This document shows, one piece after another, positions 2,849 through 24,017 of a stretch of DNA of 24,017 bases (positions are counted from its first letter, which is position 1; each line of letters begins with the position of its first letter). The stretch is from UHGV virus genome UHGV-0096010; one strand, 5' to 3'. Both the position numbers and the translations under genes were made by a program. The notes below the pieces were generated by a model. That model ran no database searches. It saw nothing but the letters and a program-made list of their open reading frames with translations, and had not been told where the DNA came from. Source of the stretch: a virus.

Positions 2849-3002
2849 TGGTTTTCTCTCACATATATATTTTTATTTGGGTTTGTAGACAGTAGAAAAA
2901 AATAAGGGCAAGAGACAGCGCATATTTTGCTTATATGATTATCCCTTACCCTTATTGCCCCGATTATTTCCAGACGATGGGGAATCGTCTATTAACGCTT
3001 TA

Positions 3003-4034: not shown

Positions 4035-4048
4035 TATTATTTTCCTTG

Positions 4049-4432: not shown

Positions 4433-4436
4433 AAGA

Positions 4437-5615: not shown

Positions 5616-5918
5616 TCATTTAGAGAAAATAGCACTTTTTGCTAAATCATTTACTAATTGCTGAATCTCTTCACTTGCAGCCTTTAACGTGCTGGCGGTG
5701 TCTGTGATGGTTTGAGTGCACATCTTGGCATCTGATAGCTCTAAATCGCTCACCAGAGAGACAAAATCTTCTAAGCATACATTGAGCTTCATTAAGCTAA
5801 TAACGCATTGAGAGAGCGTATAATCGCATAAATCTGAATAGGCTTGATTTATTCTTGTTTGTAGTGAGATAGTCAGATCTAAAAGTTGTTCCATTGCATT
5901 GCTAATATCTTCTTCCAT
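5616..5918 (-). CDS. hypothetical protein (100 aa)
   Basis: ORF whose ATG overlaps the stop of the upstream gene by 1 nt (TAATG), indicating coupling. Confidence 0.35.
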   Translation of the reverse strand: MEEDISNAMEQLLDLTISLQTRINQAYSDLCDYTLSQCVISLMKLNVCLEDFVSLVSDLELSDAKMCTQTITDTASTLKAASEEIQQLVNDLAKSAIFSK

Positions 5919-6163
5919 TATGCGTATTCTCCTTGTAATGCATCATTAATCATATTCAATACGATGTTAAAAGGTGTCTTGAGCGTCAGCACTTCATCAC
6001 GGTAACGTTCTAATGCTTCGTAGTCTTCTGTTTCTTTTGCCAGCCGGATTAACTCAGCATAGTTTTTTGCATCAGACAGGAGCATCTGAAATAATTGTGT
6101 TTCTTGAATATAGCCAATCATTATTTTTCCTTTTTCGAATATTTTCATTGGGCGCTTATACAT
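5918..6163 (-). CDS. hypothetical protein (81 aa)
   Basis: ORF in same-strand small-gene cluster; no clear SD; start uncertain (ATG at 6163 or 6148). Confidence 0.3.
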   Translation of the reverse strand: MYKRPMKIFEKGKIMIGYIQETQLFQMLLSDAKNYAELIRLAKETEDYEALERYRDEVLTLKTPFNIVLNMINDALQGEYA

Positions 6164-6178
6164 ACGCCCGTCTTTCTA

Positions 6179-6559
6179 TTAGTTAGAACGTTTGTTAGAT
6201 GCGAGAGTGTCGATCAGGTGCTGCATCAGATCTGTTTCTGTAACGCCGCCTACCTGATTGTTGAACGAATTGAAGCCTGTATAGTGACGAAATGAGGTAA
6301 AGCCTAACAATTGCCATTTCTTCAATGTGCCAGGTTCTATAATCGTTGTCTTTCTTGTTCTGGGTTTGAAATACACACCATCACCCATTGATTGAATAAT
6401 TTCTAATTCTTCGTTTGTAAGTGGTGGGCTGTTAGATTCTAAAATGAAGACTATCTCTTCACCTGCTTCTTCATTATTCTTATAAACTTGCTTTCTTACG
6501 TCGTTGAAGGTGTTCCCTTGCTCAATACGTTTTAAGTTGTTCTTTTTCTTTCTTCCCAT
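6179..6559 (-). CDS. hypothetical protein (126 aa)
   Basis: ATG at 6559 preceded by AGAGGGAAA SD; basic N-terminus MGRKKK. Confidence 0.45.
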   Translation of the reverse strand: MGRKKKNNLKRIEQGNTFNDVRKQVYKNNEEAGEEIVFILESNSPPLTNEELEIIQSMGDGVYFKPRTRKTTIIEPGTLKKWQLLGFTSFRHYTGFNSFNNQVGGVTETDLMQHLIDTLASNKRSN

Positions 6560-6693
6560 TTTCCCTCTTTTTATGTGGATTATAAAAACTGAATGCCATA
6601 GTTACGATGAATATTGCTACAAATGCACTTGCCATATGTATTGCCCGATCTGTTGTTACTGATTGTTTGTGATGTTATAAATCATTTATTTCC

Positions 6694-7263
6694 TTAAAAG
6701 GGTAGTGAATCATATATTGTGCTCTCACTTTTGAGATCAATTATCAAAGAGTCAAAATCATTTTCACAAAGATAGATATTCTTTGAATCTAATGCTCGTT
6801 TTACAAAATCTTCTGTTTCTTCGTGCGGTGGTTTCTTCTTATCAAGGGAAAGAAGCCAAGTAAAAATTTCGGGCCGCTCAGGGAACTCTGGCTCTTGTGT
6901 TTCTTCTTCAACGATGATTTCGGAAACATTCAATATTTCATTAGATTCGTCTTCTTTCTCAGAAGGATCAGGTAGTGATGATTCTCCTTTTGGAATATCA
7001 AGCACTCGATAAAGGTTAGAGCTTCCTGGTCGTGCATCTTTTATAATTAATCCCATTTCGAGCAATTTCTTAACCCTTTCTTCTGCTGCTCTTGGTGTTA
7101 TGCCAAAAACATCGCCTATCTTAGCGTAAGAGGGAAATGCACGATCAAACCCTCTCAGATAGCAGTAAAGGTTTTTAGCACTATCTGTAAATTTATGCCC
7201 GTTTACTTGGCTTATTTTTAGAATCCACATAGGAACTTTTACAAATTGTTCTTCATTAATCAT
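6694..7263 (-). CDS. winged-helix/HTH DNA-binding protein, replication-initiator-like
   Basis: preferred ATG at 7263 (MINEEQ...) with AAGGAG SD; N-terminal pattern F.K.P..L......KLY.YL......FPS...I....G.....A...V..L...GLI resembles phage/plasmid Rep-type HTH domains; acidic C-terminal half; family not verified. Confidence 0.4.
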   Translation of the reverse strand: MINEEQFVKVPMWILKISQVNGHKFTDSAKNLYCYLRGFDRAFPSYAKIGDVFGITPRAAEERVKKLLEMGLIIKDARPGSSNLYRVLDIPKGESSLPDPSEKEDESNEILNVSEIIVEEETQEPEFPERPEIFTWLLSLDKKKPPHEETEDFVKRALDSKNIYLCENDFDSLIIDLKSESTIYDSLPF

Positions 7264-7316
7264 TAAAAATCTCCTTGATGTAATCACGCTCTACGGCGCT
7301 ACTATGGTGATAAAAA

Positions 7317-7487
7317 TCACTTGCTTTTGTTTGAGAGTGTTTCAGCCTCTCTTTTCAACATATCAAGAATGTAATCTGTAACAGTGATACGTTTACTTCT
7401 GGCTTCTTTAAACAACACCTGAAATACTTCATCAGGAATATGAAAGCAAGTGCGTGGTTGCCTTTTCTTTTCTGTAGTTTCGCTCAT
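7317..7487 (-). CDS. small DNA-binding protein, ribbon-helix-helix-like
   Basis: preferred ATG at 7487 (MSETTEKK...) with GGAGAA SD; segment RTCFHIPDEVFQVLFKEARSKRITVTDYILDML looks like a beta-strand plus two helices as in CopG/Arc-type repressors. Confidence 0.4.
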   Translation of the reverse strand: MSETTEKKRQPRTCFHIPDEVFQVLFKEARSKRITVTDYILDMLKREAETLSNKSK

Positions 7488-7506
7488 AGTTTTCTCCTTC
7501 TCTTCT

Positions 7507-7707
7507 TTACTCTGTTTCAGATTCTTTTTCAGATCCTTTTTCATTTTTTCTTAATTCATCAATAATTTTTAGTGCATCGTCAAAGCATTTTTCACGCTCT
7601 GGATAACCACAGCGTCGCGCTGTGTTCCTGTTCATCCTTACTTTAAAACGGTTGATCTCACCACGTTTCCAGGCTTCCACAATATCCTGTGGAGTGAAAT
7701 ATTTCAT
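7507..7707 (-). CDS. hypothetical protein (66 aa)
   Basis: ATG at 7707 preceded by strong AGGAGG SD; first gene of the leftward small-gene cluster. Confidence 0.45.
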   Translation of the reverse strand: MKYFTPQDIVEAWKRGEINRFKVRMNRNTARRCGYPEREKCFDDALKIIDELRKNEKGSEKESETE

Positions 7708-7950
7708 TAATTAACCTCCTATTCTATTTAGTTAAAAGAAATAGACACCTTGCAAGCCTTGGGCTTCAAAGTGCGATGCATTGGTTTAATTATTTAAAGG
7801 ATAAGAATGTTTTCCTGCCCCTAATATTACTTTACCACGACTAAAGGCTTTTGTCAACCCCCCAGCCATAAAAATATTGATCATTTTCAGTGTGTTATGA
7901 TTTTTCTTAGCAATTCGTGCTCTTACGAATACTCCAATTCTTCATTATTG

Positions 7951-7980
7951 TCTAAAACGCTCTAAAACGCGTTCTAACGA
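7951..7980. repeat. tandem 10-bp direct repeat (TCTAAAACGC x2 plus degenerate third copy)
   Basis: read directly from sequence. Confidence 0.6.
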
Positions 7981-8550
7981 GGTTTTGATAAAAACAATAC
8001 ATTCCCTTATGTAATGGCTGTTTAGCTCGCCTACGGTTTGATTTAAGCGGTAGAAACTCATCTACTACCTAACATCTTTAAACCATATTTTTCTTTTTTG
8101 TCTGTTTGATGGTTGATCTATAGTTATGCGTTAGCATCCCCAAAGGGGTAACGCTACCCTAATTGCATTCGCAAGAACATTGCACAAGAAATTTATTTTA
8201 GATGATTGATGATCGTTAGATGGTAGTTAGTTAATTATCGTTCTGCGCACAGCGCAAGACTATTTAGCCTTACGCAAGCCGTAGGCTATTTGCACATAGT
8301 AGATTACATATTCGTTGTGAGCGGAAAGCGAACATAGATCTACTAACTAACATTAACAAACAAAAACTATGTGTTATGAGAAGTATCAGTCTAACTGACT
8401 AACACTCTAACTTGTGCAAGGTTCTGGCGAATGCCAATAGATTAAGGGATAGTCGAAGACTCCCTAACGGGTATCCCTATAATTATTCTTTAAAGATAAA
8501 AGAATTTATAAAAGATAATTTAATTGTAGTTTGATAGTTGATCTAATAGG

Positions 8551-8687
8551 TAACAAAATTCTGTAGGGGTGGCTAACAGTTTTCTGTGGGGGTGTCTAAC
8601 ATAATTCTGTTAGGGTTGGGGTAACAGTTTTCTGTTAGGGTGCATATTTCTTTAAAAGTTAAGGATAACAGAATTCTGTGGGGGTAG
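8551..8687. repeat. iteron-like array: five direct repeats of ~21 bp, core TAACA-N3-TTCTGT-N-GGGGT
   Basis: copies at ~8551, 8574, 8597, 8622 and 8666; four are tandem with ~22-25 bp period, the fifth follows an AT-rich gap; non-coding context 0.8-1.3 kb from the Rep-like gene. Confidence 0.6.
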
Positions 8688-9641
8688 CTCACAGTGACCT
8701 ACCGTTACATCCATCACATAACATCTGTGCAATGATCTTCTTATAATCAGTAAAAGTCTTTCTTGCTATCAAAAATTAAACATCTAAAACAAGCTTAAAT
8801 TCAAGATTAATTGATGATTAATCCCTGTGTAATTCCATACTAAAAAATCCAAGAAAAATGGCTTCAAAATGCAATTCTTACTTTCTTCACTTTTGCGTCA
8901 TCATCAGCAAAGCCTTATGTTATGCGGCATATAGCGCATCACTGCAAAATTGTTGCTCAATAAACGTTCTATCATTTGTTGAACAAGTTCTTTCACGTGT
9001 TGAAAATTTATGTTTAAATTTGCTTTCAATCTTTAATGTGCAATCACTATCAACATAAAAATAAAAAACCTTCCATTATATTTCATAGCATACAAAAGTC
9101 AATAGAAGCCCTCTCGTGCTCCTACGTAAAAAATCCACCATTTTTCCCCTGATACATCAACTCAAGGCGTTCTATGTGTTCCTTAGTGCATATTACGATT
9201 ATTATGTTAAATGGATTTTGGCCTATATTTTGACCTGCACCCGCATAAACACTGGTTTCATCGCTTACAGCCCTTGTGAGACGTGGTGCTGTTTCTAGCA
9301 TCTGATCCGACATAAAACCGATCATTCTCGTGTTTAGTGAAAGTTTAGTGAGAGACATTACAGAAAGGCTTTCTGTGTAATGATTTAATAGGTAAAAACG
9401 ATGTTGATTACGCAAGAAAATTCCTTGCTGATATTTGGGGATTCTGGATTTTCCAGATCGGGGGGCGCTGAAAATCGCGTTAAGCACTTCTCGCAATCTA
9501 GCCATAAGGGAAGGGATATAGGTATTTAGATGTATTTATAGCTATTTATTTTTTATTTATCTTTATTTAAAAATAACCTTATAAATCAATAATATACAGA
9601 ACAATCTGTTTATATTTTAATCAATTAAATCAAGTTTAATA

Positions 9642-9674
9642 CCCTTAAATACCCTAAAAATAGCCTTAAATACC
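9642..9674. repeat. two copies of CCTTAAATACCC spaced 21 bp apart in an AT-rich tract
   Basis: read directly from sequence; a partial third copy (TAATACCC) lies just upstream. Confidence 0.45.
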
Positions 9675-9839
9675 CCAATAATTAATTTTAAGGCTTTCCG
9701 TGTTCTCTTCTGCATTATGAAAATGCAAAATAAGGCACAAAACAAGCTCACAGACGCATTAAACACACATCACCTACACATCCCTATACCAAGCAATGAA
9801 AACAGCGTTATAATGCGTCCTGTTGCGTTCTGGAGATTT

Positions 9840-9998
9840 TCAGAAATCCTCTCTAAGCCATTTCAACTCACTAAGGAGTTTTCTTTCTTCGTTCTCTCGT
9901 TGCTTACGCTCTAGCCAGGCTTTTCCTTCTGGCGTAGACAGGAACTTACGAGCGTGAATCTTGCGGTTATTACGTTTGATAGCTGCAATGTTTTTCAT
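9840..9998 (-). CDS. small basic hypothetical protein (52 aa)
   Basis: ATG at 9998 with AGAGG SD 7 nt upstream; translation MKNIAAIKRNNRKIHARKFLSTPEGKAWLERKQRENEERKLLSELKWLREDF; not in ORF track because it is under 60 aa. Confidence 0.25.
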   Translation of the reverse strand: MKNIAAIKRNNRKIHARKFLSTPEGKAWLERKQRENEERKLLSELKWLREDF

Positions 9999-10603
9999 CG
10001 TGTGCCTCTGTATTCATATGAAAATTAACAAGTTACATACTACACAGGGAGACTACGCATAAAACACAATACAAGTAAAGATACATTTTCAAGACAATAG
10101 GAGCCATAAAGCGCCTTTGATGGTTATACCAAAAAATAAGCGCCGTAGGCGTATCCACTAAAAAGGGCTTTTTCACAAAAGCTATGAAGTCTTAGCAGTT
10201 CTTCTCTTATCAGGCACCCGTTGTACTCCGGTGGACGAAACCGTGCTAGAGCTTGATTCTTTCCCGATCAAGTTAGGTTTTGAAGAGGTGGGCTTTAATC
10301 CACTATTGCACTTAAAACTCTTCCCATCATTTAGCCTGTTTATCCTCTGCAACGTCTCACGACGTGTAGCATCATTGGACACCGCGCCAGGTGTGGAACA
10401 TCTTGCTAAGAGTTTTGGTAGAAGGTTTAGAGACGGTGGCACGTCTTCCAGCTTCAAAGGAACTTGTTACGAGGTTGAGCCTGGGAACTACTCGCCCATA
10501 CGTGTTACACTACCAAAGCCCATAACAACGTATAGGCGTTTGTAAGTGATAACAGAAGATACAATTTCTTAGAGAAGTTAAGCTAAGTTATTGATTTTCT
10601 TGA

Positions 10604-10649
10604 TGGTGCCGATAATAGGAGTCGAACCTACGACCTTCGCATTACGAAT
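10604..10649 (-). tRNA. 3-prime 46-nt fragment of a tRNA-Thr(CGU)-like gene (anticodon-loop through CCA); integrase attachment-site type repeat, not a complete tRNA
   Basis: minus-strand reading ATTCGTAATGCGAAGGTCGTAGGTTCGACTCCTATTATCGGCACCA shows a T-arm (GTAGG/TTCGACT/CCTAT), acceptor 3-prime strand, discriminator and CCA; sequence upstream of it cannot form the D-arm or 5-prime acceptor strand; matches from memory the 3-prime half of enterobacterial thrW. Confidence 0.6.
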
Positions 10650-11048
10650 TATAAGAATCCGCTTCTAATTCAAAGCATTACCCCATCAACACTGCGCTCA
10701 CACGTCCCACCACATCAAAACATGTAAAGCCTTGCAAGTCATTGCGAGGCCTTATGTGTCTCAGTTTTGTCCCACCTTGTATTACGACTTGCATAGCCAA
10801 TGAAGATAAATGTGACGACAAACGGCGCAGCAGTCTTCTTTTCCTTCATACTTTCCCCACCCAGCATGCATACCTTCTACCATAACTGTAGTGAATGTCT
10901 GTTATGAGCGAAAAGCGGACAGGAACATTCTGGTTAATAGATATCAATGCTAACAAAAAAGCTCCCGATGGAGATTTTGAAACCGCTTCCACATAATGAG
11001 ATAAAAGGATTTATTTCTGGTCATGCCCACACATTGACCACGTCGAAG

Positions 11049-11077
11049 TAAGTAGCTCCGCTTCGCGGAGTTACTTA
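11049..11077. other. strong palindromic hairpin (13-bp stem, 3-nt loop) downstream of the SIR2-like gene
   Basis: GTAAGTAGCTCCGC / TTC / GCGGAGTTACTTA; no flanking U-tract on either strand, so not a canonical intrinsic terminator. Confidence 0.35.
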
Positions 11078-11175
11078 AGATAATTTCTATGTAGTTCCAT
11101 GCTATGATTTAATTTTCAAGTTACAAAATCTAAATCTACAAATGTCCATTTGGGTGTAAAATTACACAATCCTAT

Positions 11176-13501
<2,326 letters not shown>

Positions 13502-13802
13502 TTTAATTACCTTATATATCCAAACTCTTAATTTTCTCTTTTTTACCATAGGATTAATCCAAAATAAAGACCTTGTTGACTAAACCCTCATGTACAAAAT
13601 GCACACTTACTCAAAAGGATCTGGAGGTAATCTCGACCTTCATGATTTAGTTCCTAGGGATAAGCAGAAATCTAGCACTGGATTAAAATTTAAAAATAAT
13701 AATCAATAGGTTATAATGGTTTTTATTCGCATCCATGGGATCTGCTGCTGCCCGCATGATGTTGGATGCGACGGCGATGGCACGACCTCACCCGGTGAAA
13801 CG

Positions 13803-14249
13803 ATGAAACGCGAAAGGGTTGTTCTTCGGGAAGGTGCAGTTGGACTTTCAATCGATGCCGTTGCAAAAGAGGCTGGCGTCAGTAAGGCAACGGTAATGTA
13901 CGATCATAAGTCAAAGCAAGATTTGCTCAGCGATCTCATCAGTCGCCTTATGCCAGTAGAGGAGGAACGTGTTCAGCAAGCGATAGCGGAAAGTAATAAT
14001 ACCCCACATCCCGCACTCTATGGGCGAATTATTTCAGCCAGTAATGCTCTCAGTCATACTGAGAGAGCAATAGTGCTGGCGGTCAGCGAATCGTTAACTA
14101 ACGATACGAATATCAGGGACACCATGCGTTCCTGCACAAACAAAGATTTGGATGAGATAAAAAGAGGACCAAAACCAGACGTTGCCGTCCTGGTATATTT
14201 GGCGTTATCTGGTATCTACTGCCAAGAATTTTTTGATTTTTACAAATGA
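13803..14249 (+). CDS. TetR-family-like transcriptional regulator (short, 148 aa)
   Basis: N-terminal HTH LSIDAVAKEAGVSKATVMYDHKSKQDLL fits the TetR signature; preferred ATG at 13803 with GGTGA SD; the longer ORF-track start 13716 overlaps a TATAAT hexamer and is probably not coding. Confidence 0.5.
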   Translation: MKRERVVLREGAVGLSIDAVAKEAGVSKATVMYDHKSKQDLLSDLISRLMPVEEERVQQAIAESNNTPHPALYGRIISASNALSHTERAIVLAVSESLTNDTNIRDTMRSCTNKDLDEIKRGPKPDVAVLVYLALSGIYCQEFFDFYK

Positions 14250-14576
14250 TCTCCTGGCGAGCGAGATAAAATTATCGAAGGCATTCGCTGTTTGTATGAA
14301 TCATACCCTTATAAGTCTGAATAAATAATGTCTCCGGGAATGACATTTCATGTGCGACTAATTCGCGATATTCCTATACGTAAAGGTCCGCTTTTGGCAC
14401 ATAGCAGCCCTAGAGACAGTGGCGTAAAGTCATGGAGAATCGGTGGGAGGATATTCAGTTTCATTCATGCCGAAATACGGTAAAATCTATAACAGATAGA
14501 AATCATTCAATATTCGCACTATCAGAAGCTGGCCAGCCAGCCGCAGCACTTTCTTGCATACGACGAGCCTGCGGTT

Positions 14577-15131
14577 TCATTTATCTCCGACCGGAAACTT
14601 CTTATACAGTGTCGATACACCAACATCATAGATGATCGCCACCTTCTGGCGAGGAATTCCTGCTGCAATTAATCGTCCGGCCTGCGCCCATTGTTCTGGT
14701 GTAAGTTTGGGACGACGTCCCCCAATTCGTCCCTGTGCGCGAGCAGCTTCCAGTCCAGCTTTTGTTCGTTCAATAATCAGTTCTCGTTCCATTTCAGCCA
14801 GGGCACCCATCACATGAAAGAAAAAACGCCCCATCGGTGTGCTGGTATCAATAGCATCCGTCAGGCTGCGAAAATTAACGCCACGTTCGCGCAACTCCTC
14901 AACCAGAATGACCAGATGCCGCATACTACGCCCCAGCCGATCCAGTTTCCAGACAACCAGTGTGTCACCTGCCGATAATGTCCTGAGCAGTTTTTTCAGT
15001 CCCGGCCTTTCGGACTTTGTACCGCTTATCTTGTCTTCAAAAATCAGCTCGCATCCTGCACAGTTCAACGCATTACGTTGTAGATCTGTGTTCTGGTCAT
15101 TTGTTGATACGCGTACATAGCCAATAAGCAT
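14577..15131 (-). CDS. pin: Gin/Pin/Cin/Hin-family serine DNA invertase
   Basis: start at MLIGYVRVSTNDQNTDLQRNAL; conserved VWKLDRLGRS, GRFFFHVMGALAEMERELIIERT and C-terminal HTH GIPRQKVAIIYDVGVSTLYKK; lies immediately beside an invertible tail-fibre segment. Confidence 0.9.
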   Translation of the reverse strand: MLIGYVRVSTNDQNTDLQRNALNCAGCELIFEDKISGTKSERPGLKKLLRTLSAGDTLVVWKLDRLGRSMRHLVILVEELRERGVNFRSLTDAIDTSTPMGRFFFHVMGALAEMERELIIERTKAGLEAARAQGRIGGRRPKLTPEQWAQAGRLIAAGIPRQKVAIIYDVGVSTLYKKFPVGDK

Positions 15132-15185
15132 GGTAGATCCCCCTGACAAAAGCAGGAATGATGCCATTTGCTCGTTATTTCTGCA

Positions 15186-15211
15186 TTTTCATAAACGTTG
15201 GTTTGAGAGAA
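15186..15211 (+). other. invertase crossover site (gix/hix-like), distal
   Basis: TTTTCATAAACG-TT-GGTTTGAGAGAA; imperfect 12-2-12 dyad matching the Hin/Gin site pattern, inverted relative to the partner site at 17052-17077. Confidence 0.7.
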
Positions 15212-15832
15212 GGTTCATTTGGGTTCAGAAATCTGGTTACCTTCACAACGGCTGGAGTAACAAGCTGGACTGTTCCTGAAGAGTTGCGCAAAGGAAGAAA
15301 ATGTTACGTCAAAGTTATTGGTGGCGGTGCGTCAGGAGGGATAGGTTCAACAACCGCTTCAGCCGTTACATGTGGCGGAGGAGGTGGTGGGGGCGGAGTT
15401 GCTGAGGGACTGGTAGATTTAACTGGTATAAACAGTGTTTCGATTACGGTTGGTGCCGGTGGTGCGCCTGTGTCTGGTATTTCTGTAAACGGTAAAAATG
15501 GTGGCTCGAGCAGTTTCGGGACTTACATGTCAGCTTCCGGAGGCTATAGCGGAGGCCAGCCTTCCGGAGGGTTAGGCGCAGTTGGTGTCGGGGGAACAAT
15601 TAATACATCGCTTGGGCCAGGTTCTCCAGGTTCCATTGCTTCTGCCGCATCGGGGGCTGGTAATGGTGGTTCTGGTGGTGGCCCCGGAGGAGCAGGTTCA
15701 TTCAGAGATACAGCTAACGGAAAAGCGGTATCAGCAGTTGGGCCTGGAGGTGGCGGTGCAGGATTATGTCCTAATTCATCAACGGGTCAGTCGGGTGCCG
15801 GAGCAGATGGCGCAGTTTATATTTACTGGTGA
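15200..15832 (+). CDS. alternative tail-fibre C-terminal cassette (silent orientation), glycine-rich
   Basis: open frame from the crossover site to TGA at 15830-15832; no start of its own; begins ...NVGLREGS like the expressed fibre at its crossover (...NLGLGEGS); Gly-rich with poly-G run, resembling adhesin-tip regions. Confidence 0.55.
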   Translation, partial: GLREGSFGFRNLVTFTTAGVTSWTVPEELRKGRKCYVKVIGGGASGGIGSTTASAVTCGGGGGGGGVAEGLVDLTGINSVSITVGAGGAPVSGISVNGKNGGSSSFGTYMSASGGYSGGQPSGGLGAVGVGGTINTSLGPGSPGSIASAASGAGNGGSGGGPGGAGSFRDTANGKAVSAVGPGGGGAGLCPNSSTGQSGAGADGAVYIYW

Positions 15833-15839
15833 GGTTCAT

Positions 15840-16010
15840 ATGTGGGCAAGAATTGAAGAAAATAAAGTAGAAGAGATAACGGAAATTAATCCTGAAGGAA
15901 GATTCCATCCATCATTAATATGGAAAGAATGCCCTGCTGACACACAGCAGGGGGATTTATATATTGATGGTGAGTTTATTGCGCAGTCTCCGGCAGTTCA
16001 GGCCAGATGA
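15840..16010 (+). CDS. small ORF (56 aa) downstream of alternative cassette; candidate alternative fibre chaperone or truncated tfa-prime
   Basis: ATG at 15840 with GGTGAGG SD 7 nt upstream; converges on and overlaps the 3-prime end of the minus-strand Tfa gene. Confidence 0.35.
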   Translation: MWARIEENKVEEITEINPEGRFHPSLIWKECPADTQQGDLYIDGEFIAQSPAVQAR

Positions 16011-16584
16011 CATCCGGCGCGGTGCTGGTATCTGTTGCCGTCACCGCGTCAATGTAATCCAGCACGGCGTTAAGTCGGGTTGTTTCTGCCAGCGTCAACT
16101 TCCGTCCGGCCTGTAATTTCAGCTGAATCAGACTAATGGAAGCCATTGCTGCATCAATCAGTGACTGGCGCTGTGCTTCTGCCGCGTCTACTGCGGCACT
16201 ATGCTGTGCCTCAGTATCGGTCACCCATTTCTCACCATCCCATTTATCATATGGCGTTAACGGGGCGATAGTGGTTGTATTTTCAGGGTAATCACCCGGA
16301 GCTGTGATTTCTTTCGATTCTCCTGTTTCGGTGCTATAGATGATTTCACCGCGATGGTCTGGCACATATTCCCATGAGTTAAAATCTGCAGAACGGCAGA
16401 TTGCATAACCAGTTTTGTATGAGCCAGGAGCATCTAAACAGGAACATGCCGGAATGCCGACACCCACAGCAAGATATTCATTTGAAGTGGAAATATATTC
16501 CCGTATTTCACCATCATAGTTATAGACGGTAATATTCCCTGCCTTCGTGGCAATAATCTCGCTATTTAATACAGCGTTATCCAT
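15976..16584 (-). CDS. tail fibre assembly protein (Tfa / gpG-gpU family)
   Basis: 202 aa; ATG overlaps H stop by 1 nt (TAATG); C-terminal region with W..KW.TDTEAQ...STAPDVIWPELP typical of caudoviral tail-fibre assembly chaperones. Confidence 0.75.
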   Translation of the reverse strand: MDNAVLNSEIIATKAGNITVYNYDGEIREYISTSNEYLAVGVGIPACSCLDAPGSYKTGYAICRSADFNSWEYVPDHRGEIIYSTETGESKEITAPGDYPENTTTIAPLTPYDKWDGEKWVTDTEAQHSAAVDAAEAQRQSLIDAAMASISLIQLKLQAGRKLTLAETTRLNAVLDYIDAVTATDTSTAPDVIWPELPETAQ

Positions 16585-17885
16585 TATGCAGCCCTCACAA
16601 TATAATTAAAGGCAATGTTACGTGGGCGGTTCTCATTTGCGGTTGGGACAACGGCTGAAGCATTAAAATTCGCATACAGGGAGCGTTGATACCCGGATGC
16701 TGATGCACCACTTAATGCGGGAGCTTTTGACTCCGAAGCCGAAAAGGCCCCTGACACGTATCCTAATAACCCTTGTGAATCGCCAATTGAACTGTAGCCA
16801 ACCACCCCGGTAATGTTTCGGATAGCATCTCCTTGTGCTGAAAGCAGAGTTCGCCCACTATCCACTCCCTTTCCACCATCCCAGCCACGAATAAACTCAC
16901 CGCGTAAATCAGGCAATTTTAACGTCGGGTAAGCCTTTGCCAGATTAGGGTAATCTTCAGCAGAAAAAGCCGCACCGTTGCATTTCAGCCAGCCTGTTGG
17001 CGGTGTGGCTGAAGGCCATGGAACAGGCACACCAACAGGCAGCGCAGAGCCTTCCCCTAAACCAAGGTTTTGTAGAAAAACAGAAACGTTTTCTATGTCT
17101 GAACCATTTGCCGATTTATCCATCTTTCCAGCGAGTGAATTTGTTACGGTGGTAGCAAAGTTAGGATCATTACCCAAAGCCGCAGCAAGTTCATTCAGCG
17201 TATCCAGCGCTTCAGGCGAAGAGCCAACCAAAGCAGCAATAGCAGCCTGAACGAAAGCTGTATTTGCAATTTGAGTAGAACTATCTTTGCCTTCCGCCGT
17301 TGGCGCAGTCGGCCTGCCAGTAAGAGCGGGACTTTCTTTTGGTGCGTATTGTTTATGCGGATCAGCCGCAGCTACATGCGCTGCCATTTTCTGATCAACA
17401 TAGCTTTTCACCTGGATGATCTGATCATCAACATACTGTCGGGTTGCCAGAACTACCGAAGGGTCAATTTTCAGCGTTACGGCAGCGGTGCTGCTGACAA
17501 TCAGGATCATGCGTACAACCTGTACGCGCCCGCTTCCCTCCTGTAACTGCGGCTTATACGTTTCCGCACAGTTGGCTACGGCAATCATATCGCCGTCTTT
17601 ATCGAATAAACCGATTTCACGGATCCACCACCCGCCCTCGTCTTCAGGGATCACCTGCTCGGCAATAATCTGGTTGGCGTTATTCGGGTCAATGCTCAGA
17701 CTATTAAGCGGCTTGCGGCGCAGCTCATGAACCAGCGCCGTTTGTGCCGGGTTCGGCGTCGGCAACACGCCGTTACCATCGCCTACAGCCATCTTGGTGA
17801 TTTCAACCTGCGCACCCAATGCCGTGGCATTTGCCAGTTTCGCCGCGCCCACATTGGTTAGCACGGCATAATATTTAGTCGCCAC
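16584..17885 (-). CDS. H: tail fibre protein, P2 gpH-like N-terminal domain with tail-collar-type C-terminal variable region
   Basis: N-terminus ...NVGAAKLANATALG...MAVGDG...AEQVIPEDEGGWWIREIGLFD...AVANCAETYKP...EGSGRVQVVRMILIVSS and internal TQIANTAFVQAAIAALVGSSPEALDTLNELAAALGNDPNFATT match remembered P2 H; C-terminal LPDLRGEFIRGWD collar motif; GTG at 17885 with GGAG SD preferred over ORF-track TTG at 17906. Confidence 0.8.
   Translation of the reverse strand: MATKYYAVLTNVGAAKLANATALGAQVEITKMAVGDGNGVLPTPNPAQTALVHELRRKPLNSLSIDPNNANQIIAEQVIPEDEGGWWIREIGLFDKDGDMIAVANCAETYKPQLQEGSGRVQVVRMILIVSSTAAVTLKIDPSVVLATRQYVDDQIIQVKSYVDQKMAAHVAAADPHKQYAPKESPALTGRPTAPTAEGKDSSTQIANTAFVQAAIAALVGSSPEALDTLNELAAALGNDPNFATTVTNSLAGKMDKSANGSDIENVSVFLQNLGLGEGSALPVGVPVPWPSATPPTGWLKCNGAAFSAEDYPNLAKAYPTLKLPDLRGEFIRGWDGGKGVDSGRTLLSAQGDAIRNITGVVGYSSIGDSQGLLGYVSGAFSASESKAPALSGASASGYQRSLYANFNASAVVPTANENRPRNIAFNYIVRAA
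17052..17077 (-). other. invertase crossover site (gix/hix-like) inside the tail-fibre gene
   Basis: minus-strand reading TTCTACAAAACC-TT-GGTTTAGGGGAA, encoding ...FLQNLGLGE...; partner of the site at 15186-15211. Confidence 0.7.
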
Positions 17886-18489
17886 TTGCGATCTCCACGG
17901 TGTCAATTAAATGGATTGCCGCCCCGGTGTAATCATCACCGCCCACGGCTATGGTTTCAGGAAAATACGGGTACACGGTTAGCGTATCGCCGGAATAACT
18001 GCCCGCGCCGATATACAGATCGCCGGTTGTTTGCAGGTGAAGAGACATTCCCAGCATATGACGGCTGCACGGCTTCACATCGGCGATCAGGCGTTCAAGT
18101 TCCTGATAGGTTTCTTCACTAATGCCCTGGTCTTCCACGCCAATATCCAGCGTGAAGGTGCCCGGTGCGGTGTCGATGTTCCACCACTCGTTAACCCGGA
18201 TGAAGAAGCCGAACGGCTCCACAACCCGGCGCATGGCGCCCGTTGTACCCTTGTACTTATGCAGGTAAAACGCATCGGCCACCGCCTTTCGTTTTGTGTT
18301 TATCGGCCAGGCCTCATCCCAGCGATCAACGGAGAAGGCCCACGCCAGATAGGGCAACAGATCAGCCCGACACGTCCACGGGTTCCACAACTGGCGCAGC
18401 GGCACGGGCACTTCACCCAACGACGCACAGACGCGCGCGGCGACGCGCTCCATTCGGCTGGCGCTGGGTGGTAACAGGTCATTACTCAT
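17875..18489 (-). CDS. I: baseplate assembly protein, P2 gpI-like
   Basis: preferred ATG at 18489 (MSNDLLPP...); LLPP...LW.PW.C...LLPYLAWAFSVD.W pattern of the phage tail protein I family; synteny J-I-H. Confidence 0.7.
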   Translation of the reverse strand: MSNDLLPPSASRMERVAARVCASLGEVPVPLRQLWNPWTCRADLLPYLAWAFSVDRWDEAWPINTKRKAVADAFYLHKYKGTTGAMRRVVEPFGFFIRVNEWWNIDTAPGTFTLDIGVEDQGISEETYQELERLIADVKPCSRHMLGMSLHLQTTGDLYIGAGSYSGDTLTVYPYFPETIAVGGDDYTGAAIHLIDTVEIASGD

Positions 18490-19393
18490 CGTAACCACCC
18501 ACCGTTATGGTGTATTCGGTGCAGTGCGATGCCTGGTAGTCACTCAGCACAATATCCGCAACAGGCTGCGCCAGTTCCACGCGCTGGACGCCTTCGACGT
18601 GCAGGGCGGCGTAGATAGCTGAAAGACGGATATCGCGCCCTAAGCGATTCTGCGCGGCAATATACGCCTGTAACTGCTGTTCCGATGCCTGCCGGACGGG
18701 TTCAGCTTCCGGCCCCGGATAGATGTAAAGCGTTGCATCAATCTGATACGGCACGATCTCCGCAGACTGCACCGTTACCCTGTCGGCCACCGGGCGCACT
18801 TCTTCATCGTTCAGGGCAGCAGCGACCACGGAAAGCAGATCATCGCTGGCCGTTCCGTCACCTTCGCGCGACAGCACCGAAATGGTGACGCAGGCAGGCG
18901 TAGGACTCACCGCCGAAATATCAGCTACGCGCCCGTCTGCTGAACGCCCCCAAAATTCATACGCCGCAGTTGGCCCGGCCACGCTCAGACCTTCAAAAGC
19001 CTGCTGGGTACGCGTGCGTAAATCTGGGTCTGACTCCATCACGGCTTCAATTGGCGGTGTAACGCTGTCGTCTTCTTCCTGAATGGTCAGACGTTCAACG
19101 TTGAAATTGACCGCCAGATTATCCAGATCGCTATCCGTGGAATAAGCCAGCATCACCGCGCGGGCTGCTTCATTCACCCGCTGGCGCAACAGCAATTCGC
19201 GATAGCAATTCTCTTCCAGCAGCATGGTGATCGGCTCCGATTCAAGCTCAAGCGTGCGGGCGATCTCTTCCTGCTCGTCTTCCGGGTACATCGCAATAAA
19301 TGCCGCCTTGCGCTGCGCGAAAAGCGTTTCGAAGTCCAGCGGTTCAACCACCACGGGCGGCGGTAGCTGCGATAAATCGATCGTGCCGCTCAT
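18482..19393 (-). CDS. J: baseplate assembly protein, P2 gpJ-like
   Basis: 303 aa; N-terminus IDLSQLPPP...EPLDFETLFAQRKAAF...YPEDEQEEIARTLELESEP...LLEENCYRELLLRQRVNEAARAVMLA closely matches remembered P2 J; ATGA overlap with W. Confidence 0.85.
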   Translation of the reverse strand: MSGTIDLSQLPPPVVVEPLDFETLFAQRKAAFIAMYPEDEQEEIARTLELESEPITMLLEENCYRELLLRQRVNEAARAVMLAYSTDSDLDNLAVNFNVERLTIQEEDDSVTPPIEAVMESDPDLRTRTQQAFEGLSVAGPTAAYEFWGRSADGRVADISAVSPTPACVTISVLSREGDGTASDDLLSVVAAALNDEEVRPVADRVTVQSAEIVPYQIDATLYIYPGPEAEPVRQASEQQLQAYIAAQNRLGRDIRLSAIYAALHVEGVQRVELAQPVADIVLSDYQASHCTEYTITVGGYDE

Positions 19394-19740
19394 GCCTGGC
19401 CCCTCAATGTAATATCAGCGTTAAATGGCGTCTGATTGTCGGTGCGATTGGCCTGGATAGTGGCAACCAGCCGACCGGCACCCGGCGCGCTCAGGGTGAT
19501 ACTGGTCAGAGAGATCCGCGGTTCCCATAAATACAGGGCGCTGTAGATGGCAGACATAACGCGCAGCTTCGTTATGGCGTTATCTATCAGGTTGAAAAGC
19601 TGCGAACCGTAAGCGCGGCGCATTACACGGGAACCGATCGGCGTTAACAGAATATCGCCGATAGACTGCGCTATATGCTCGTTGTCGGTGATGGCATGGC
19701 CTGAACTGGCATTCATGCCGCTGTAACGGACTGTACTCAT
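19390..19740 (-). CDS. W: baseplate protein, P2 gpW-like (gp25/GPW family)
   Basis: 116 aa; ...HI.QSIGDILLTPIGSRVMRRAYGS... typical of the GPW/gp25 family; synteny V-W-J. Confidence 0.8.
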   Translation of the reverse strand: MSTVRYSGMNASSGHAITDNEHIAQSIGDILLTPIGSRVMRRAYGSQLFNLIDNAITKLRVMSAIYSALYLWEPRISLTSITLSAPGAGRLVATIQANRTDNQTPFNADITLRGQA

Positions 19741-20366
19741 ACCGGGCCACCTGTATTACTACCACCGGACTGGACGCCGCTATGTTTGTGAGAATGGACA
19801 ACGACACCATTAGACGAAAGCGATCCGCCTGAATGGGTAATATTGCCCTTCATTTCCCCGCCCTTTTGCACTTCCAGCGTGGCGGTGATCAGCTTGTTGG
19901 TGCAGACCACTTCCGGCGTGTCCAGGGTAACGCGCGTATCTGCCTTGACCGTTACCACCGGCACGGTGGCGGTAATGGATTCCGACGCGGTGACGCTTGC
20001 CGTTTTTACCCCGCTGACAACCAGCGTGCTGGCCTCCGGGTCATATGAAATACGGGCGCCATCCGGGTGCAGGATCACGCAGGTGGTAGCGCCAGCATCT
20101 GGCGGCGGTGCGTCTTCGCTGTAAAGGCTTCCGGCAATGAATGCCGTCTCCAGCTCACCGCAGGGGCACAAAATATAAACCTGTTCGCCCACTGTCGGCG
20201 CCCACCACGTCACGGCTTCACCGGCGCGCGGCACTGCCCAGCGGATCCAGTCGGTTTTGTTCTCGCCGGTTTCGACGCGTGCAAGATACTTTTCCGTATC
20301 CACTTCCAGCACGGTGCCAATGCGGGCGAGATTGCAGATAAGGCGATAGAGTTCGTTTAAATTCAT
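19737..20366 (-). CDS. V: baseplate spike/hub protein, P2 gpV-like
   Basis: 209 aa; ...TWWAPTVGEQVYIL...; C-terminal TASVTASESITATVPVVTVKADTRVTLDTPEVVCTNKLITATLEVQKGGEMKGNITHSGG matches remembered P2 V. Confidence 0.85.
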   Translation of the reverse strand: MNLNELYRLICNLARIGTVLEVDTEKYLARVETGENKTDWIRWAVPRAGEAVTWWAPTVGEQVYILCPCGELETAFIAGSLYSEDAPPPDAGATTCVILHPDGARISYDPEASTLVVSGVKTASVTASESITATVPVVTVKADTRVTLDTPEVVCTNKLITATLEVQKGGEMKGNITHSGGSLSSNGVVVHSHKHSGVQSGGSNTGGPV

Positions 20367-20504
20367 AGTGCTGACTGTTTCCCGTGGTGCCGGTTACGCT
20401 GTCCGGCGTCGTTTCCACCCGGTAGCAGGCTTTACGACCGTTTCGGCTTTTGGGTTATGCAGTCAGTATCAGGAGTCGCGCGCGCGCAAACAACGCGGCA
20501 CCCT

Positions 20505-20522
20505 TGTGGCGGGTTGGTGACA
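20505..20522 (-). promoter_or_regulatory. P2-type late promoter activator site (TGT-N12-ACA dyad) upstream of gene V
   Basis: minus-strand TGTCACCAACCCGCCACA in the S-V intergenic gap; a -10-like GATACT lies where expected if the dyad is centred near -55; this matches the remembered architecture of Ogr/Delta-dependent late promoters. Confidence 0.55.
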
Positions 20523-20523
20523 A

Positions 20524-21168
20524 TCAAATCTCTTGCATGAAGGCGACAACAGTATCGACCAGCCAGTCTAAATCCCCCTCGGTCATGCCCAGGAGTTCAC
20601 GCACCGGGTAGCGTGCACGGGCACCCGGCACCACGTTATCGACTTCACCGTACTGGTGAACGCTGGCAATTTCGGCGGTATGCCCCTGAAAGCCAACCAC
20701 TGCCATGCCGCCCGTACCGTAAGCCTTAAGAAAGCGTGCGGTGCGCAGCTTGCGGAACATCGGATCCTTTCTGGTGCGGTTTTGCTTTGACTGGTTGAGA
20801 TTGATTTCAATATAGCGCTGGATATCGCGCTTATAGAACGTGCGCAGGGCACCGCGATCAACGTCATAGCCGGTGATTGCGCGGTGCTCACCCCTGCCCG
20901 TGGTTCGCCAGTTGCGTAACTCCCTGGCCTCATCATTCCATACGAATTTTATCCCGCCCTGGGTGCGCAGAATTTTGCGGCGGCGGGCCTGATAGCTTTC
21001 ACCGCTGGGGTTCTTCTGGCTGGCGATACGCTTTTGCTGGCGCTTACGCAGCCCGATCGCAACGTCGCGCGTCAGCTTGCGACGGTGTCCGGGCGAAAGC
21101 TGCGCGGCAACGCTGGCTAACCAGTCGTCTAACTGCTGGAAGAGGGGATCGGTTTGTTGTCCTGCCAT
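20524..21168 (-). CDS. S: virion morphogenesis / tail completion protein, P2 gpS-like
   Basis: 214 aa ORF with ATG start; position between R and V as in P2; family call by synteny and general composition. Confidence 0.55.
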   Translation of the reverse strand: MAGQQTDPLFQQLDDWLASVAAQLSPGHRRKLTRDVAIGLRKRQQKRIASQKNPSGESYQARRRKILRTQGGIKFVWNDEARELRNWRTTGRGEHRAITGYDVDRGALRTFYKRDIQRYIEINLNQSKQNRTRKDPMFRKLRTARFLKAYGTGGMAVVGFQGHTAEIASVHQYGEVDNVVPGARARYPVRELLGMTEGDLDWLVDTVVAFMQEI

Positions 21169-21623
21169 GTTTCGCCGCTGACCTCATCAACAAATACCAG
21201 TGACCACGCGCCAATTTCCGGCCCCGGTGCAGGGTCAGCACGGTGACGGGTGACGATCTCGCCATCTTCACGGGTGACGATCACCGCTTCATCAGCCTGA
21301 ATCTGGATCAGTACGTCCATCGTGCTGTTACTCAGAATATCGGCTTCGAATGTTATGCCGTTCTGCTGCCTGTCCGGGTTAAACAACAGATCAGGCTGAT
21401 ATAAGCGCGCCCATGCCAGCACCGGCACGCTGATAGTATCCAGAGATTCAGGGTAATCCATCACCAGCACTTCCAGCGTATAGCGATACTCAAACGCAGC
21501 AGCACGCTGGCCGGTGCTGACCATACGACCTTTTCGCAGATAAACCGCCAGATTATCGGGATTTTCGCGCAGCCAGGGCACATGCTGGCTTATCATCTGG
21601 CGCAGTAAATCGGGTTTAAGCAT
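21129..21623 (-). CDS. R: tail completion protein, P2 gpR-like
   Basis: 164 aa; N-terminus MLKPDLLR and central ...RYTLEV...VPVLAW....QPD... resemble remembered P2 R; synteny. Confidence 0.65.
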   Translation of the reverse strand: MLKPDLLRQMISQHVPWLRENPDNLAVYLRKGRMVSTGQRAAAFEYRYTLEVLVMDYPESLDTISVPVLAWARLYQPDLLFNPDRQQNGITFEADILSNSTMDVLIQIQADEAVIVTREDGEIVTRHRADPAPGPEIGAWSLVFVDEVSGETWQDNKPIPSSSS

Positions 21624-22127
21624 TACTTATTCCCCCCGGACTTAACCGCATCATATGCAGCCTCACAGGCTAATCCTCTGGCTCTTGCTTCATCAGCTTC
21701 TCTTGCCAGTTCCCCCGCTCGCTCGTCAGCCCGCTTAAACAGGTCGGCAAGCAATGCGGCACCGCTGGCTTTTGCCTCGCTTCTGCCGGGAGTTCCGGCA
21801 CCGCAGGCACGTTCACGGTCTGCCAGTCTTCTGGCGAGTTCGTCGGCTTTGGCGTGCAGCCCACGAGAAACAGCACTGGCACGATCGGCAGCAGCCTGCA
21901 CGCCAGCAAGCTGCTGACTGGTTTCTGATCGCATCAATTTCACCTTGTCGGCGTTGTTCTTCTGTCCTGGCCTCAGCCTGCCTTTGCGCCAGCGCGGTGG
22001 CGTCGCGTGCATCACGTTGCGCCCACTTTTCACGCCAGTGCTGATCTGCATCACCGTAACCAGCGCTGTAACGCCAGTGGCTAAAACCCCATACAGCAGC
22101 AGCGGCCAGCACAAGACAAACGATCAC
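21623..22127 (-). CDS. Rz/LysB-like i-spanin with coding signal split between two reading frames (apparent frameshift)
   Basis: N-terminal TM segment plus charged helix (MIVCLVLAAAAVWGF...WREKWAQRDARDATALAQRQAEARTEEQRRQ) in the frame starting at 22127; Ala/Arg-rich coiled-coil-like C-terminal domain (...ADELARRLADRERA...AREADEARARG...) in the frame ending at 21623. Confidence 0.45.
21670..21909 (-). CDS. Rz1/LysC-like o-spanin lipoprotein, embedded in the i-spanin region in another frame
   Basis: signal-peptide-like N-terminus with lipobox LVGC, then proline-rich mature region (TPKPTNSPEDW...PAVPELPAEARQKPAVP); start codon TTG. Confidence 0.55.
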   Translation of the reverse strand: MLACRLLPIVPVLFLVGCTPKPTNSPEDWQTVNVPAVPELPAEARQKPAVPHCLPTCLSGLTSERGNWQEKLMKQEPED

Positions 22128-22241
22128 TTTCCAACCCCATATCTAAACCTCTCGCCAGCTCGCACTGTCATTACCGTACGTGCTGGAGCACTGTCAAAAA
22201 TGACCGCGCTCGATACGCACGGCCAGCACGGTTAGACATGA

Positions 22242-22721
22242 TCACGACTCAGAAACGGAGCGCGTACCGGATAGCTGCGGCAATGGTTGAACATCGACAG
22301 GAATATCTTTCGGCCAGCGATATCCAGATACCCGCGATGTAGAAAACGCACGGATATTCACCGCATCACTCTGATTTCCACCCAGTACCATCAAATCGCC
22401 ATTTGCCTGCTGACCAACAACAAAGCCAACGTGACCGCCGCCGTCACGGCTGAATACCACCACACAACCATATGCAGGTTTATCCAGCTTCACCCCCCAA
22501 TTAAGATAAGATGCGGCTGATTCAAAGCGGCTTGATGTGATACCTGAACGTTCCAGCACTCCCCCAACGTAAGCCGCACACCACGGCGTTTCGTCGTCCT
22601 TAATACCGCCTCGTTTTATATCCTTCCAGAACTGTAAAATTAGCGGGTTATGCTCTGGCCCTTTAATTTCCTTTTCACCAATATATTTACGACCTTCAAC
22701 AATCCATGATGGTTCTTTCAT
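22242..22721 (-). CDS. putative endolysin / peptidoglycan hydrolase (Cys-His peptidase-like)
   Basis: 159 aa between holin and spanins; conserved Cys (PWCAAYVGG) and His (GGGHVGFVVG) spaced as in CHAP/NlpC-P60-type hydrolases; function assigned mainly by lysis-cassette synteny. Confidence 0.55.
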   Translation of the reverse strand: MKEPSWIVEGRKYIGEKEIKGPEHNPLILQFWKDIKRGGIKDDETPWCAAYVGGVLERSGITSSRFESAASYLNWGVKLDKPAYGCVVVFSRDGGGHVGFVVGQQANGDLMVLGGNQSDAVNIRAFSTSRVSGYRWPKDIPVDVQPLPQLSGTRSVSES

Positions 22722-22785
22722 GGCTGCATTCCTCTTTGACAGTGAATAAAACCGCCAACCAGCAAATCATTTCAGGTGATGGGAT

Positions 22786-23115
22786 TTATTCCCCGCCCTT
22801 CATTCCGCCGATACGGTTTTCGATAAACCCAGTAACTTTGTTGCGGACTTTATCCGCTCCCATAAATCCGATTGAGGCGCCCACGAACGTTACTGCGTTG
22901 GACGGAAGCCCCAGATATTCCAGCGAACCGGCCACAGCAAGCGTGACAATCCCACATACCAGCGATCCGGTGGCGGTTTTAAGCAAAGACTGCCCATCGT
23001 AAAGGCTCATTAGCGCCGAAATACTCAGCGCCGCACCAGCCGCAAACAGTGTCGGCAGATAAGTAGCGATCCATTTCATTGTTTGTTCGAGTAATCCCGG
23101 TGGTGTGTCGTGCAT
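22786..23115 (-). CDS. holin
   Basis: small protein with hydrophobic TM segments (LPTLFAAGAALSISALM, LVCGIVTLAVAGSL) and C-terminal GFMGADKVRNKVTGFIENRIGG motif; second in-frame ATG at 23079; ORF-track start 23235 likely over-extended. Confidence 0.6.
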   Translation of the reverse strand: MHDTPPGLLEQTMKWIATYLPTLFAAGAALSISALMSLYDGQSLLKTATGSLVCGIVTLAVAGSLEYLGLPSNAVTFVGASIGFMGADKVRNKVTGFIENRIGGMKGGE

Positions 23116-23125
23116 ACCCTCCCCC

Positions 23126-23326
23126 TTAATCCCATAGCTGCACGGTTTCCCGCTGGGCTGGCGGCTGGATCTCTGGCAGGTAGACAATCTGCCCGGCCTG
23201 CAACTCAGTGGCGGCGGAAATGCCCTTATTGGCATCGATCACCGCCTCGGTAACGCCTGCTGTTCTGCCGTAATAGCGCCAGCAAAGCAGGTCGATCGTG
23301 TCGTTTTGCTGCGCCTGAACGTTCAT
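23126..23326 (-). CDS. X: tail protein X, P2 gpX-like (LysM-like)
   Basis: 66 aa; NDTIDLLCWRYYGRT...GQIVYLPE matches the LysM-like pattern of P2 X; synteny L-X-holin. Confidence 0.8.
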   Translation of the reverse strand: MNVQAQQNDTIDLLCWRYYGRTAGVTEAVIDANKGISAATELQAGQIVYLPEIQPPAQRETVQLWD

Positions 23327-23814
23327 TACACCAACTCCGCCAGGCCCCGGCTTTCGTCCTGGATATCACGGATTGACCAGCGCACATCCCGCCACAGCGT
23401 ATCGATCTGCGTGCTCAATGCCGCCGCGTGGTCTTCGCCTTTACTGGTGGTGTCAATATCGCGGTAGCCTTCAATCAACAGCGCCTTAGTGAGTGAATAC
23501 ACGGCGTTTTTATAGCGCCATACCTTCACGGAAGTGCCATTCACCGGACTGGCCGGAATTTCTGCCAATGACTCATAGCCCGCATCAATCTGCACCTGGC
23601 GCCACAGGAAAAGCTGATCATTAACATGGGCCACCGCTTCCACCGTTCGCGACATCAGGCGATCGGTTGTCACCTGCCCATCAAGACGCATCGCGCGGCG
23701 TAGTTCAGCCAGCGAAATGACCGGCCAGAATGGCAGGCTTTCAACCTTCGCGCCGCCATCATCAGGCACTGGATCGGATGGTGGCCGTACTGGCTCAGTG
23801 GCTACCAGACTCAT
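23326..23814 (-). CDS. L: head completion/stabilisation protein, P2 gpL-like
   Basis: preferred ATG at 23814 (MSLVATEP...) with GGAG SD; the ORF-track GTG extension to 23910 is low-complexity and probably non-coding; assignment by synteny. Confidence 0.55.
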   Translation of the reverse strand: MSLVATEPVRPPSDPVPDDGGAKVESLPFWPVISLAELRRAMRLDGQVTTDRLMSRTVEAVAHVNDQLFLWRQVQIDAGYESLAEIPASPVNGTSVKVWRYKNAVYSLTKALLIEGYRDIDTTSKGEDHAAALSTQIDTLWRDVRWSIRDIQDESRGLAELV

Positions 23815-23916
23815 GATCTCTACTCCGTATAAGTCAGGCGGTGGACGGCAGGACGAAGACGCGGCGTTGCCTGTTTTCGCCTGCCGTGCCGCCTGGGTGC
23901 GCGGGGGCACGTTCGG

Positions 23917-24017
23917 TTATGACGCCGCCTTCTGGCGGGCTGTCGTGGTTCTTTTCTTCGCTGCCGGCTTGCTTTTAGCGGCGGGCTTTTTGGTTTCCCG
24001 CTTCGCTTTTGGCTGGG
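23917..24017 (-). CDS. 3-prime end of an upstream gene truncated by the window edge, possibly terminase small subunit (gpM-like); lysine-rich C-terminal tail
   Basis: open frame reading ...QPKAKRETKKPAAKSKPAAKKRTTTARQKAAS then stop at 23917-23919; no start within window; frame choice uncertain. Confidence 0.3.
   Translation of the reverse strand, partial: QPKAKRETKKPAAKSKPAAKKRTTTARQKAAS

Follow-up and report, generated by a model that had tools for sequence, protein, structure and literature searches.

The gap between genes S and V of the analysed DNA very probably holds the late promoter PV of an E. coli prophage that belongs to the P2 family and is of the SEN4/SEN5 (Senquatrovirus-like) type. 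The window, as we call the whole stretch of 24,017 nucleotides that was analysed, carries in this gap a perfect inverted repeat of the kind recognized by Ogr/Delta-type activators, followed at the appropriate distance by a -10-like hexamer. The promoter adds to a kind already well known, as the Ogr/Delta late-promoter mechanism of P2, 186 and P4 has been textbook knowledge since the 1980s and 1990s, and our interpretation draws solely on comparative sequence evidence. A first-pass annotation had already read the region as a P2-type late promoter, and this reading is supported by the position and geometry of the elements, the copies in phage SEN5 and the conservation among relatives.

The promoter would serve the operon V-W-J-I-H-G, which lies on the minus strand downstream of gene S. 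The relevant genes of the window are:

20524..21168, minus strand: gene S (virion morphogenesis), which ends the upstream late operon (Pfam PF05069, E = 8e-24)
15976..20366, minus strand: V-W-J-I-H-G, the operon predicted to be served by the promoter (ORFs; Pfam for V, H and G)
19737-20366, minus strand: V (Pfam PF04717, PF18715 and PF18946)
19390-19740, minus strand: W
18482-19393, minus strand: J
17875-18498, minus strand: I
16584-17906, minus strand: H, tail fibre (Pfam)
15976-16584, minus strand: G, tail-fibre assembly protein (Pfam)

Pfam also identifies the neighbouring gpR and gpL, and the gene order of the V operon is the same in the E. coli prophages L083-L090, in P2 and in SEN5. Positions 17400-24015 share 95-97% identity with Salmonella phage SEN5/SEN4 (Peduoviridae, Senquatrovirus), E. 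coli genomes match the whole window piecewise, and an identical S protein is found in 3453 blocks of the assembly collection. The overlap of genes R and S measures 40 nt (21129-21168) in the window and its E. coli relatives and 4 nt in SEN5.

Architecture of the putative promoter

The S-V gap comprises 157 bp (20367..20523), and the ATG of the V-like gene follows at 20366. Read directly, the minus strand from 20523 to 20504 is TTGTCACCAACCCGCCACAA, an extended and perfect TTGT-N12-ACAA dyad. Its TGT-N12-ACA core, TGTCACCAACCCGCCACA, occupies 20522..20505 of the minus strand and the dyad is centred on 20513.5. The TGA stop codon of the S-like ORF lies at 20526..20524; the 20-mer directly abuts this stop and the TGT core lies 2 nt beyond it. 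Sequence and ORF coordinates thus bear out the TGT-N12-ACA dyad that the first-pass annotation had placed in the 157-bp gap. In minus-strand order, the region reads GAGATTTGA-TTGTCACCAACCCGCCACAA-GGGTGCCGCGTTGTTTGCGCGCGCGCGACTCCT-GATACT-GACTGC, with TTGTCACCAACCCGCCACAA itself flanked downstream by GGG. Only one species-representative genome, Salmonella enterica s1, contains the exact 20-mer. The elements of the predicted promoter, all on the minus strand, are:

20504..20523, minus strand: putative Ogr-type activator binding dyad TTGTCACCAACCCGCCACAA, the sole exact TTGT-N12-ACAA in the window, with half-sites invariant in 13 relatives
20488..20493, minus strand: TTGTTT at the -35 position, matching TTGACA at 3/6 positions including TTG, 17 nt upstream of GATACT
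20477..20487, minus strand: alternating (GC) tract GCGCGCGCGCG inside the promoter spacer
20465..20470, minus strand: -10-like hexamer GATACT, matching TATAAT at 4/6 positions, 33 nt after ACAA and kept by 12 close relatives
20457..20458, minus strand: predicted transcription start, placed from the P2 start sites, which lie 7-10 nt after the equivalent hexamers
20367..20456, minus strand: 5' leader predicted for the V operon, ~91 nt when counted from the predicted start

For the comparison of promoter geometry, the -55 position and the activator and start sites of P2 were taken from the P2 GenBank annotation (PP, PO, PV and PF), all promoter modules were aligned on the 20-mer, and the hexamers 33 nt downstream were compared. 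The same 33-nt spacing between the 20-mer and a -10-like hexamer is found in the window, in all five SEN5 promoter directions and in the four P2 late promoters, so the -10-like GATACT, described earlier as lying at the expected distance, is spaced as in P2. The hexamers at this position are:

Window PV: GATACT
SEN5 PD: GACGAT
SEN5 PFI: AATGAT
SEN5 PO: AATGAT
SEN5 PP: TAGCCT
P2 PO: GAAACT
P2 PP: TAGCCT
P2 PF: TGAAAA
P2 PV: CAATCT

In the L020 relative, the counterpart of GATACT is GAAACT at the same spacing. Applying the hexamer-to-start rule of P2, transcription in the window would start at ~20458, which would put the dyad centre at ~-55.5, in agreement with the position near -55 that the first-pass annotation gave for P2, 186 and P4 late promoters, and would yield the ~91-nt leader, a length that differs from P2. 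This leader is variable among relatives, with ~41 nt missing in L018 and a much shorter leader in L020, and is therefore dispensable.

The first-pass annotation had seen no good -35 element. A consensus scan of positions 19700-21200 of the window indeed found no sigma-70-type promoter, but the TTGTTT with its TTG is present, and the -35 element is therefore partial rather than absent. TTG occurs in the same register in SEN5 PD (TTGTTC), SEN5 PO (TTGCGC) and the PV of L020 (TTGCGC), whereas the P2 late promoters, when aligned on the dyad, lack it.

Transcription from P2-type late promoters needs the activator as well as the alpha subunit of RNA polymerase, and rpoA109 blocks it. By analogy with P2, an Ogr-type zinc-finger activator (CX2CX22CX4C) would bind the TTGT-N12-ACAA dyad, centred ~55 bp upstream of the start, and would recruit RNA polymerase via the alpha subunit to a weak core promoter (TTGTTT, 17 nt, GATACT). 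This core is presumably too weak to fire alone; once activated, transcription would proceed from ~20458 through V, W, J, I, H and G, the baseplate and tail fibre genes.

Dyad copies, conservation and alternative explanations

The four late promoters of P2 have TGT-N12-ACA in common and are Ogr-dependent (PMC3931495). Like the window promoter, P2 PP, PO, PV and PF have a partial or perfect TGT-N12-ACA dyad centred near -55, and P2 PV likewise precedes gene V of a V-W-J-I-H-G operon. A divergent promoter pair shares a single dyad at P/O in P2 and SEN5, and in SEN5 also at FI/D, and the activators of P2 and of the SEN4/5 lineage are both small CX2CX22CX4C zinc-finger proteins encoded after gene D. 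In contrast to the perfect, extended window dyad (TTGT/ACAA), the right halves are imperfect in P2 PV, PO and PF, and P2 has neither a TTG at the -35 position nor the (GC)5 spacer tract of the window promoter. The SEN4/5 lineage also has the FI-U genes inverted relative to D, unlike P2. The same promoter class and activator family include the late promoters Psid and PLL of P4 (activated by Delta) and those of 186 (B) and PSP3 (Pag). P4 Delta consists of two fused Ogr domains, and a further binding site has been reported in the P4 promoters; P4-type genes are absent from the window. The motif of the PpsR/CrtJ operators of purple photosynthetic bacteria is also written TGT-N12-ACA. This resemblance is coincidental: the operators are bound by repressors from an unrelated protein family of alpha- and beta-proteobacteria and have no bearing on a prophage of E. 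coli.

The extended dyad TTGT-N12-ACAA occurs exactly three times in the 33.5 kb of SEN5 (0.5 expected), and only in late regulatory gaps:

3038: P/O gap
9262: S/V gap
20789: FI/D gap

In a P2-family phage, late promoters are needed at precisely these three places. The PV and PD modules of SEN5 are near-duplicates, each consisting of TTGTCA(C/G)CAACC(C/T)GC(C/A)ACAA followed by GCGTTGTT and a (GC)n tract. E. coli prophages encoding the identical S protein also have the P/O and S/V sites, and E. coli AR_0118 has the FI/D site. Additional dyads, for which the first-pass annotation had recommended scanning the rest of the replicon, exist in the late gaps of SEN5 and of the E. coli relatives.

An IMG/VR scan with the V protein confirmed 592 related stretches, and 80 loci were kept. 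The dyad is retained by all close relatives (V at least 86% identical) and by the L020 group (V 67% identical). TTGT and ACAA are invariant in the 13 distinct aligned IMG/VR upstream regions, and most of the 12 spacer positions vary; for example, the dyad reads TTGTCACCCCCCCCCCACAA in L018 and TTGTTACCCACCCCTGACAA in L020. Lack of conservation in related prophages had been named beforehand as an observation that would speak against the promoter, and what the relatives show is conserved half-sites with a drifting spacer.

The strict TGT-N12-ACA motif is mostly absent from the V upstream regions of P2-clade relatives, including P2 PV itself (TTGT-N12-CAAA). In this clade, the left half-site and the geometry are conserved and the right half-site is often imperfect. 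TTGT lies 74-84 nt before the V gene in 33 of the 46 distinct regions, usually with CATCCT 33 nt after the 20-mer, and 19/46 regions match the dyad with at most one mismatch, compared to 0, 0 and 4 in three coding-sequence control regions. Many of the IMG/VR loci of the P2/186 clade (L024-L080) also have an inverted repeat, GCCGCCGG...CCGGCGGC, approximately 25-60 nt upstream of V. It sits between the dyad and the conserved CATCCT as a hairpin-forming element in the promoter spacer, and is possibly the terminator of the upstream operon in these P2/186-type PV regions.

Three of the five (GC)≥4 runs of SEN5 are located within the spacers of PV, PD and PP (positions 9298, 20827 and 3012, respectively), where the tract length is (GC)4-6, and the spacer tract of L020 is GCGCGCGCGTGTGTG, i.e. 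an alternating (GC)4(GT)3. SEN5 PO and PFI, read from these dyads in the opposite direction, have no such tract. The recurrence of TTG together with an alternating GC tract in three late-promoter spacers is the one mildly unusual feature of this lineage. It could mean that the Ogr-dependent promoters of the SEN4/5 lineage are composite, combining the -55 dyad with a TTG at or near -35 and an alternating purine-pyrimidine tract, but we consider this unlikely. If it were true, the tract would be a second regulatory input that P2 lacks, with a supercoiling- or Z-DNA-sensitive spacer and a second activator contact, similar to the extra Delta site that P4 promoters reportedly have, as candidate roles.

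The bare motif alone is uninformative, as TGT-N12-ACA occurs six times in the whole window against 5.59 sites expected and is thus not enriched, and TTGT-N12-ACAA with one mismatch allowed is found 15 times against 13.6 expected. Since counts at the chance rate prove nothing by themselves, the argument is built on location, geometry, the recurrence of the dyad in a related phage and its conservation. These counts would agree with a chance occurrence of a short palindromic pattern, but the exact 8-base dyad is present only once in the window, with ~0.0013 sites expected in the 157-bp gap. In addition, all three SEN5 sites fall in late regulatory gaps and the half-sites are kept across relatives with V proteins 67-100% identical, leaving coincidence with a negligible probability. 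It is scarcely more credible that the dyad acts as RNA, either by terminating the S transcript or stabilising its end as a hairpin, or as part of a structure in the V leader. Although it is an inverted repeat located right behind the S stop codon, its arms comprise only 4 bp around a 12-nt loop and no T run follows, and the spacer substitutions in relatives have no compensatory pattern, none being needed to keep the arms. A terminator or other RNA element was rejected because no terminator-like site was found between S and V, a 201-nt region shows no folding advantage over shuffled sequence (z = 0.38), no Rfam family matches and ARAGORN found no tRNA in the window.

The missing terminator has a further consequence, as read-through from the upstream PO operon probably contributes to V expression. 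Taken further, V-G might be transcribed by this read-through only, with the dyad being conserved for another reason, e.g. as the site of a protein unrelated to Ogr. The weakness of the core promoter would fit, as would the lack of a terminator-like hairpin at a place where P2 has a terminator and orf30 and the window neither. Yet read-through leaves unexplained why the module of dyad and hexamer also precedes P, O, FI and D in SEN5, and the spacing is exactly as in the mapped P2 promoters. As for other proteins, the CRP site TGTGA-N6-TCACA corresponds to TGT-N10-ACA, and the spacings of both CRP and FNR sites differ from TGT-N12-ACA. We therefore regard transcription by read-through alone as very unlikely, and an Ogr-type late promoter supplemented by some read-through as the better description of this region.

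Activator gene and truncation of the prophage

In intact relatives, the genes beyond the invertase are U, T, E, FII and FI, encoded on the opposite strand, and then D and ogr. The Ogr of SEN5 is an 80-aa protein (22042-22284, plus strand) with the CX2CX22CX4C motif and a match to Pfam Ogr_Delta (PF04606, E = 1.5e-13), and E. coli AR_0118 encodes an identical 80-aa protein (WP_001251454.1) just after gene D. With just 30% identity between SEN5-type Ogr and P2 Ogr, a shared site preference is an assumption. The RefSeq entry of SEN5 (NC_028701.2) assigns the note "late control protein ogr" to an ORF of 39 aa on the minus strand (22160-22279), which is the wrong strand, and the start of the O gene (3092) is probably annotated ~54 nt too far upstream when compared to the 281-aa O of the E. 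coli relatives. The paper describing SEN4/5 mentions neither promoters nor ogr. The sites described here thus provide a new regulatory annotation for a very common enterobacterial prophage lineage, in which late promoters and ogr are unannotated or misannotated.

The window contains no intact Ogr/Delta gene according to tblastn searches with P2 Ogr, SEN5 Ogr and P4-type delta, and a six-frame scan of the window for the zinc-finger motif gave one spurious match only. The earlier statement that the activator is not encoded in the window is therefore correct for an intact gene, with a fragment as the only trace:

13730..13819, minus strand: 3' remnant (30 codons) of a PSP3/P2-type ogr/pag gene, matching P2 Ogr residues 44-72 by tblastn (50% identity, E = 3e-4)

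The remnant peptide matches only the C-termini of phage Ogr/Pag genes (ENT4, 76.7%, E = 5e-8; PSP3 Pag, 60%), and a DNA-level search of phages with the remnant gave no match. Where its zinc-finger half should be, a TetR-family gene begins (13803-14249, plus strand), and this junction is 99.4% conserved in many E. coli genomes. The remnant has no zinc finger and is not functional; it sits within an unrelated cassette and is foreign to this prophage lineage.

The prophage in the window lacks U, T, E, FII, FI, D and ogr, and its invertase gene is followed instead by a cassette encoding TetR, a deaminase, Ham1 and SIR2. Sequence identities change along this part of the window: H and G (15988-18500) are 98% identical to the relative L084, positions 15213-15987 have no match among the compared loci, and positions 13000-15212, comprising the invertase and the sequence leftward of it, correspond with 98% identity to the pinE-TetR region of E. 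coli 18AR0366. Taken by itself, the invertase is 98% identical to the e14-type pinE of 18AR0366 vs. 75% to the invertase of the relatives. These mixed identities indicate that the prophage recombined at or near the invertible segment, which unlinked the F operon and ogr, and suggest recombination between the invertible regions of two prophages. Among the complete E. coli genomes in the collection, none covers at least 80% of the window or of the junction region 13900-17400. The tail-fibre invertible segment spans 14577-17906, with H and G on the minus strand and the serine invertase gene adjoining; it also contains, on the plus strand, an alternative glycine-rich fibre end (15158-15832) and an assembly-protein ORF.

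As the cognate ogr and the tail genes of the F operon are absent, firing of the promoter would depend on an Ogr/Delta protein supplied from another source in the cell. With an intact activator gene and the rest of the tail genes missing from the window, it may be silent in this genome. In the strongest form of this explanation, the site is a late promoter by descent that has become a silent relic here, with no activator reaching it and V-G unexpressed from it. The gene losses and the cassette in their place are consistent with such a relic, as are the e14-type invertase, the lack of an intact Ogr/Delta gene in the window and the absence of this arrangement from the complete E. coli genomes of the collection. 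On the other hand, neither the promoter nor the V-G reading frames are damaged, their sequences barely differ from those of active relatives, and Ogr/Delta proteins work in trans. Delta-carrying P4-type satellites occur in E. coli genomes, for instance in 18AR0366, where a delta-type gene lies next to psu. We regard a silent relic as a serious but less likely possibility in this genome.

Members of the Ogr/Delta family cross-activate one another's late promoters, which is the basis of the first-pass suggestion that this module may be activated in trans. The prediction is that the baseplate and tail-fibre operon of the truncated prophage responds to any Ogr or Delta of a co-resident P2-like prophage or P4-like satellite.

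Other elements in the window

The cassette that follows the invertase gene has a low GC content (34-38%) and comprises four genes within 11176-14249:

13803-14249, plus strand: TetR regulator
12521-13549: adenosine deaminase (PADLOC: CARF-ADA deaminase domain)
11970-12524: Ham1/ITPase
11176-11970: SIR2-like protein (PADLOC: ThsA-type SIR2)

E. coli LD27-1 carries the same four-gene cassette within its Rac prophage and 18AR0366 carries it next to pinE, making it a candidate mobile anti-phage cassette.

Positions 7700-11176 contain few long ORFs. The first part of the window (1-10649) is a low-GC (34-47%) phage-like element that encodes proteins resembling a Dit tail protein, a tape-measure protein, a replication initiator and, weakly, a major head protein. 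In many E. coli genomes, this element has a counterpart of 99.5-99.7% identity, in a region whose annotation includes tRNA-Thr.
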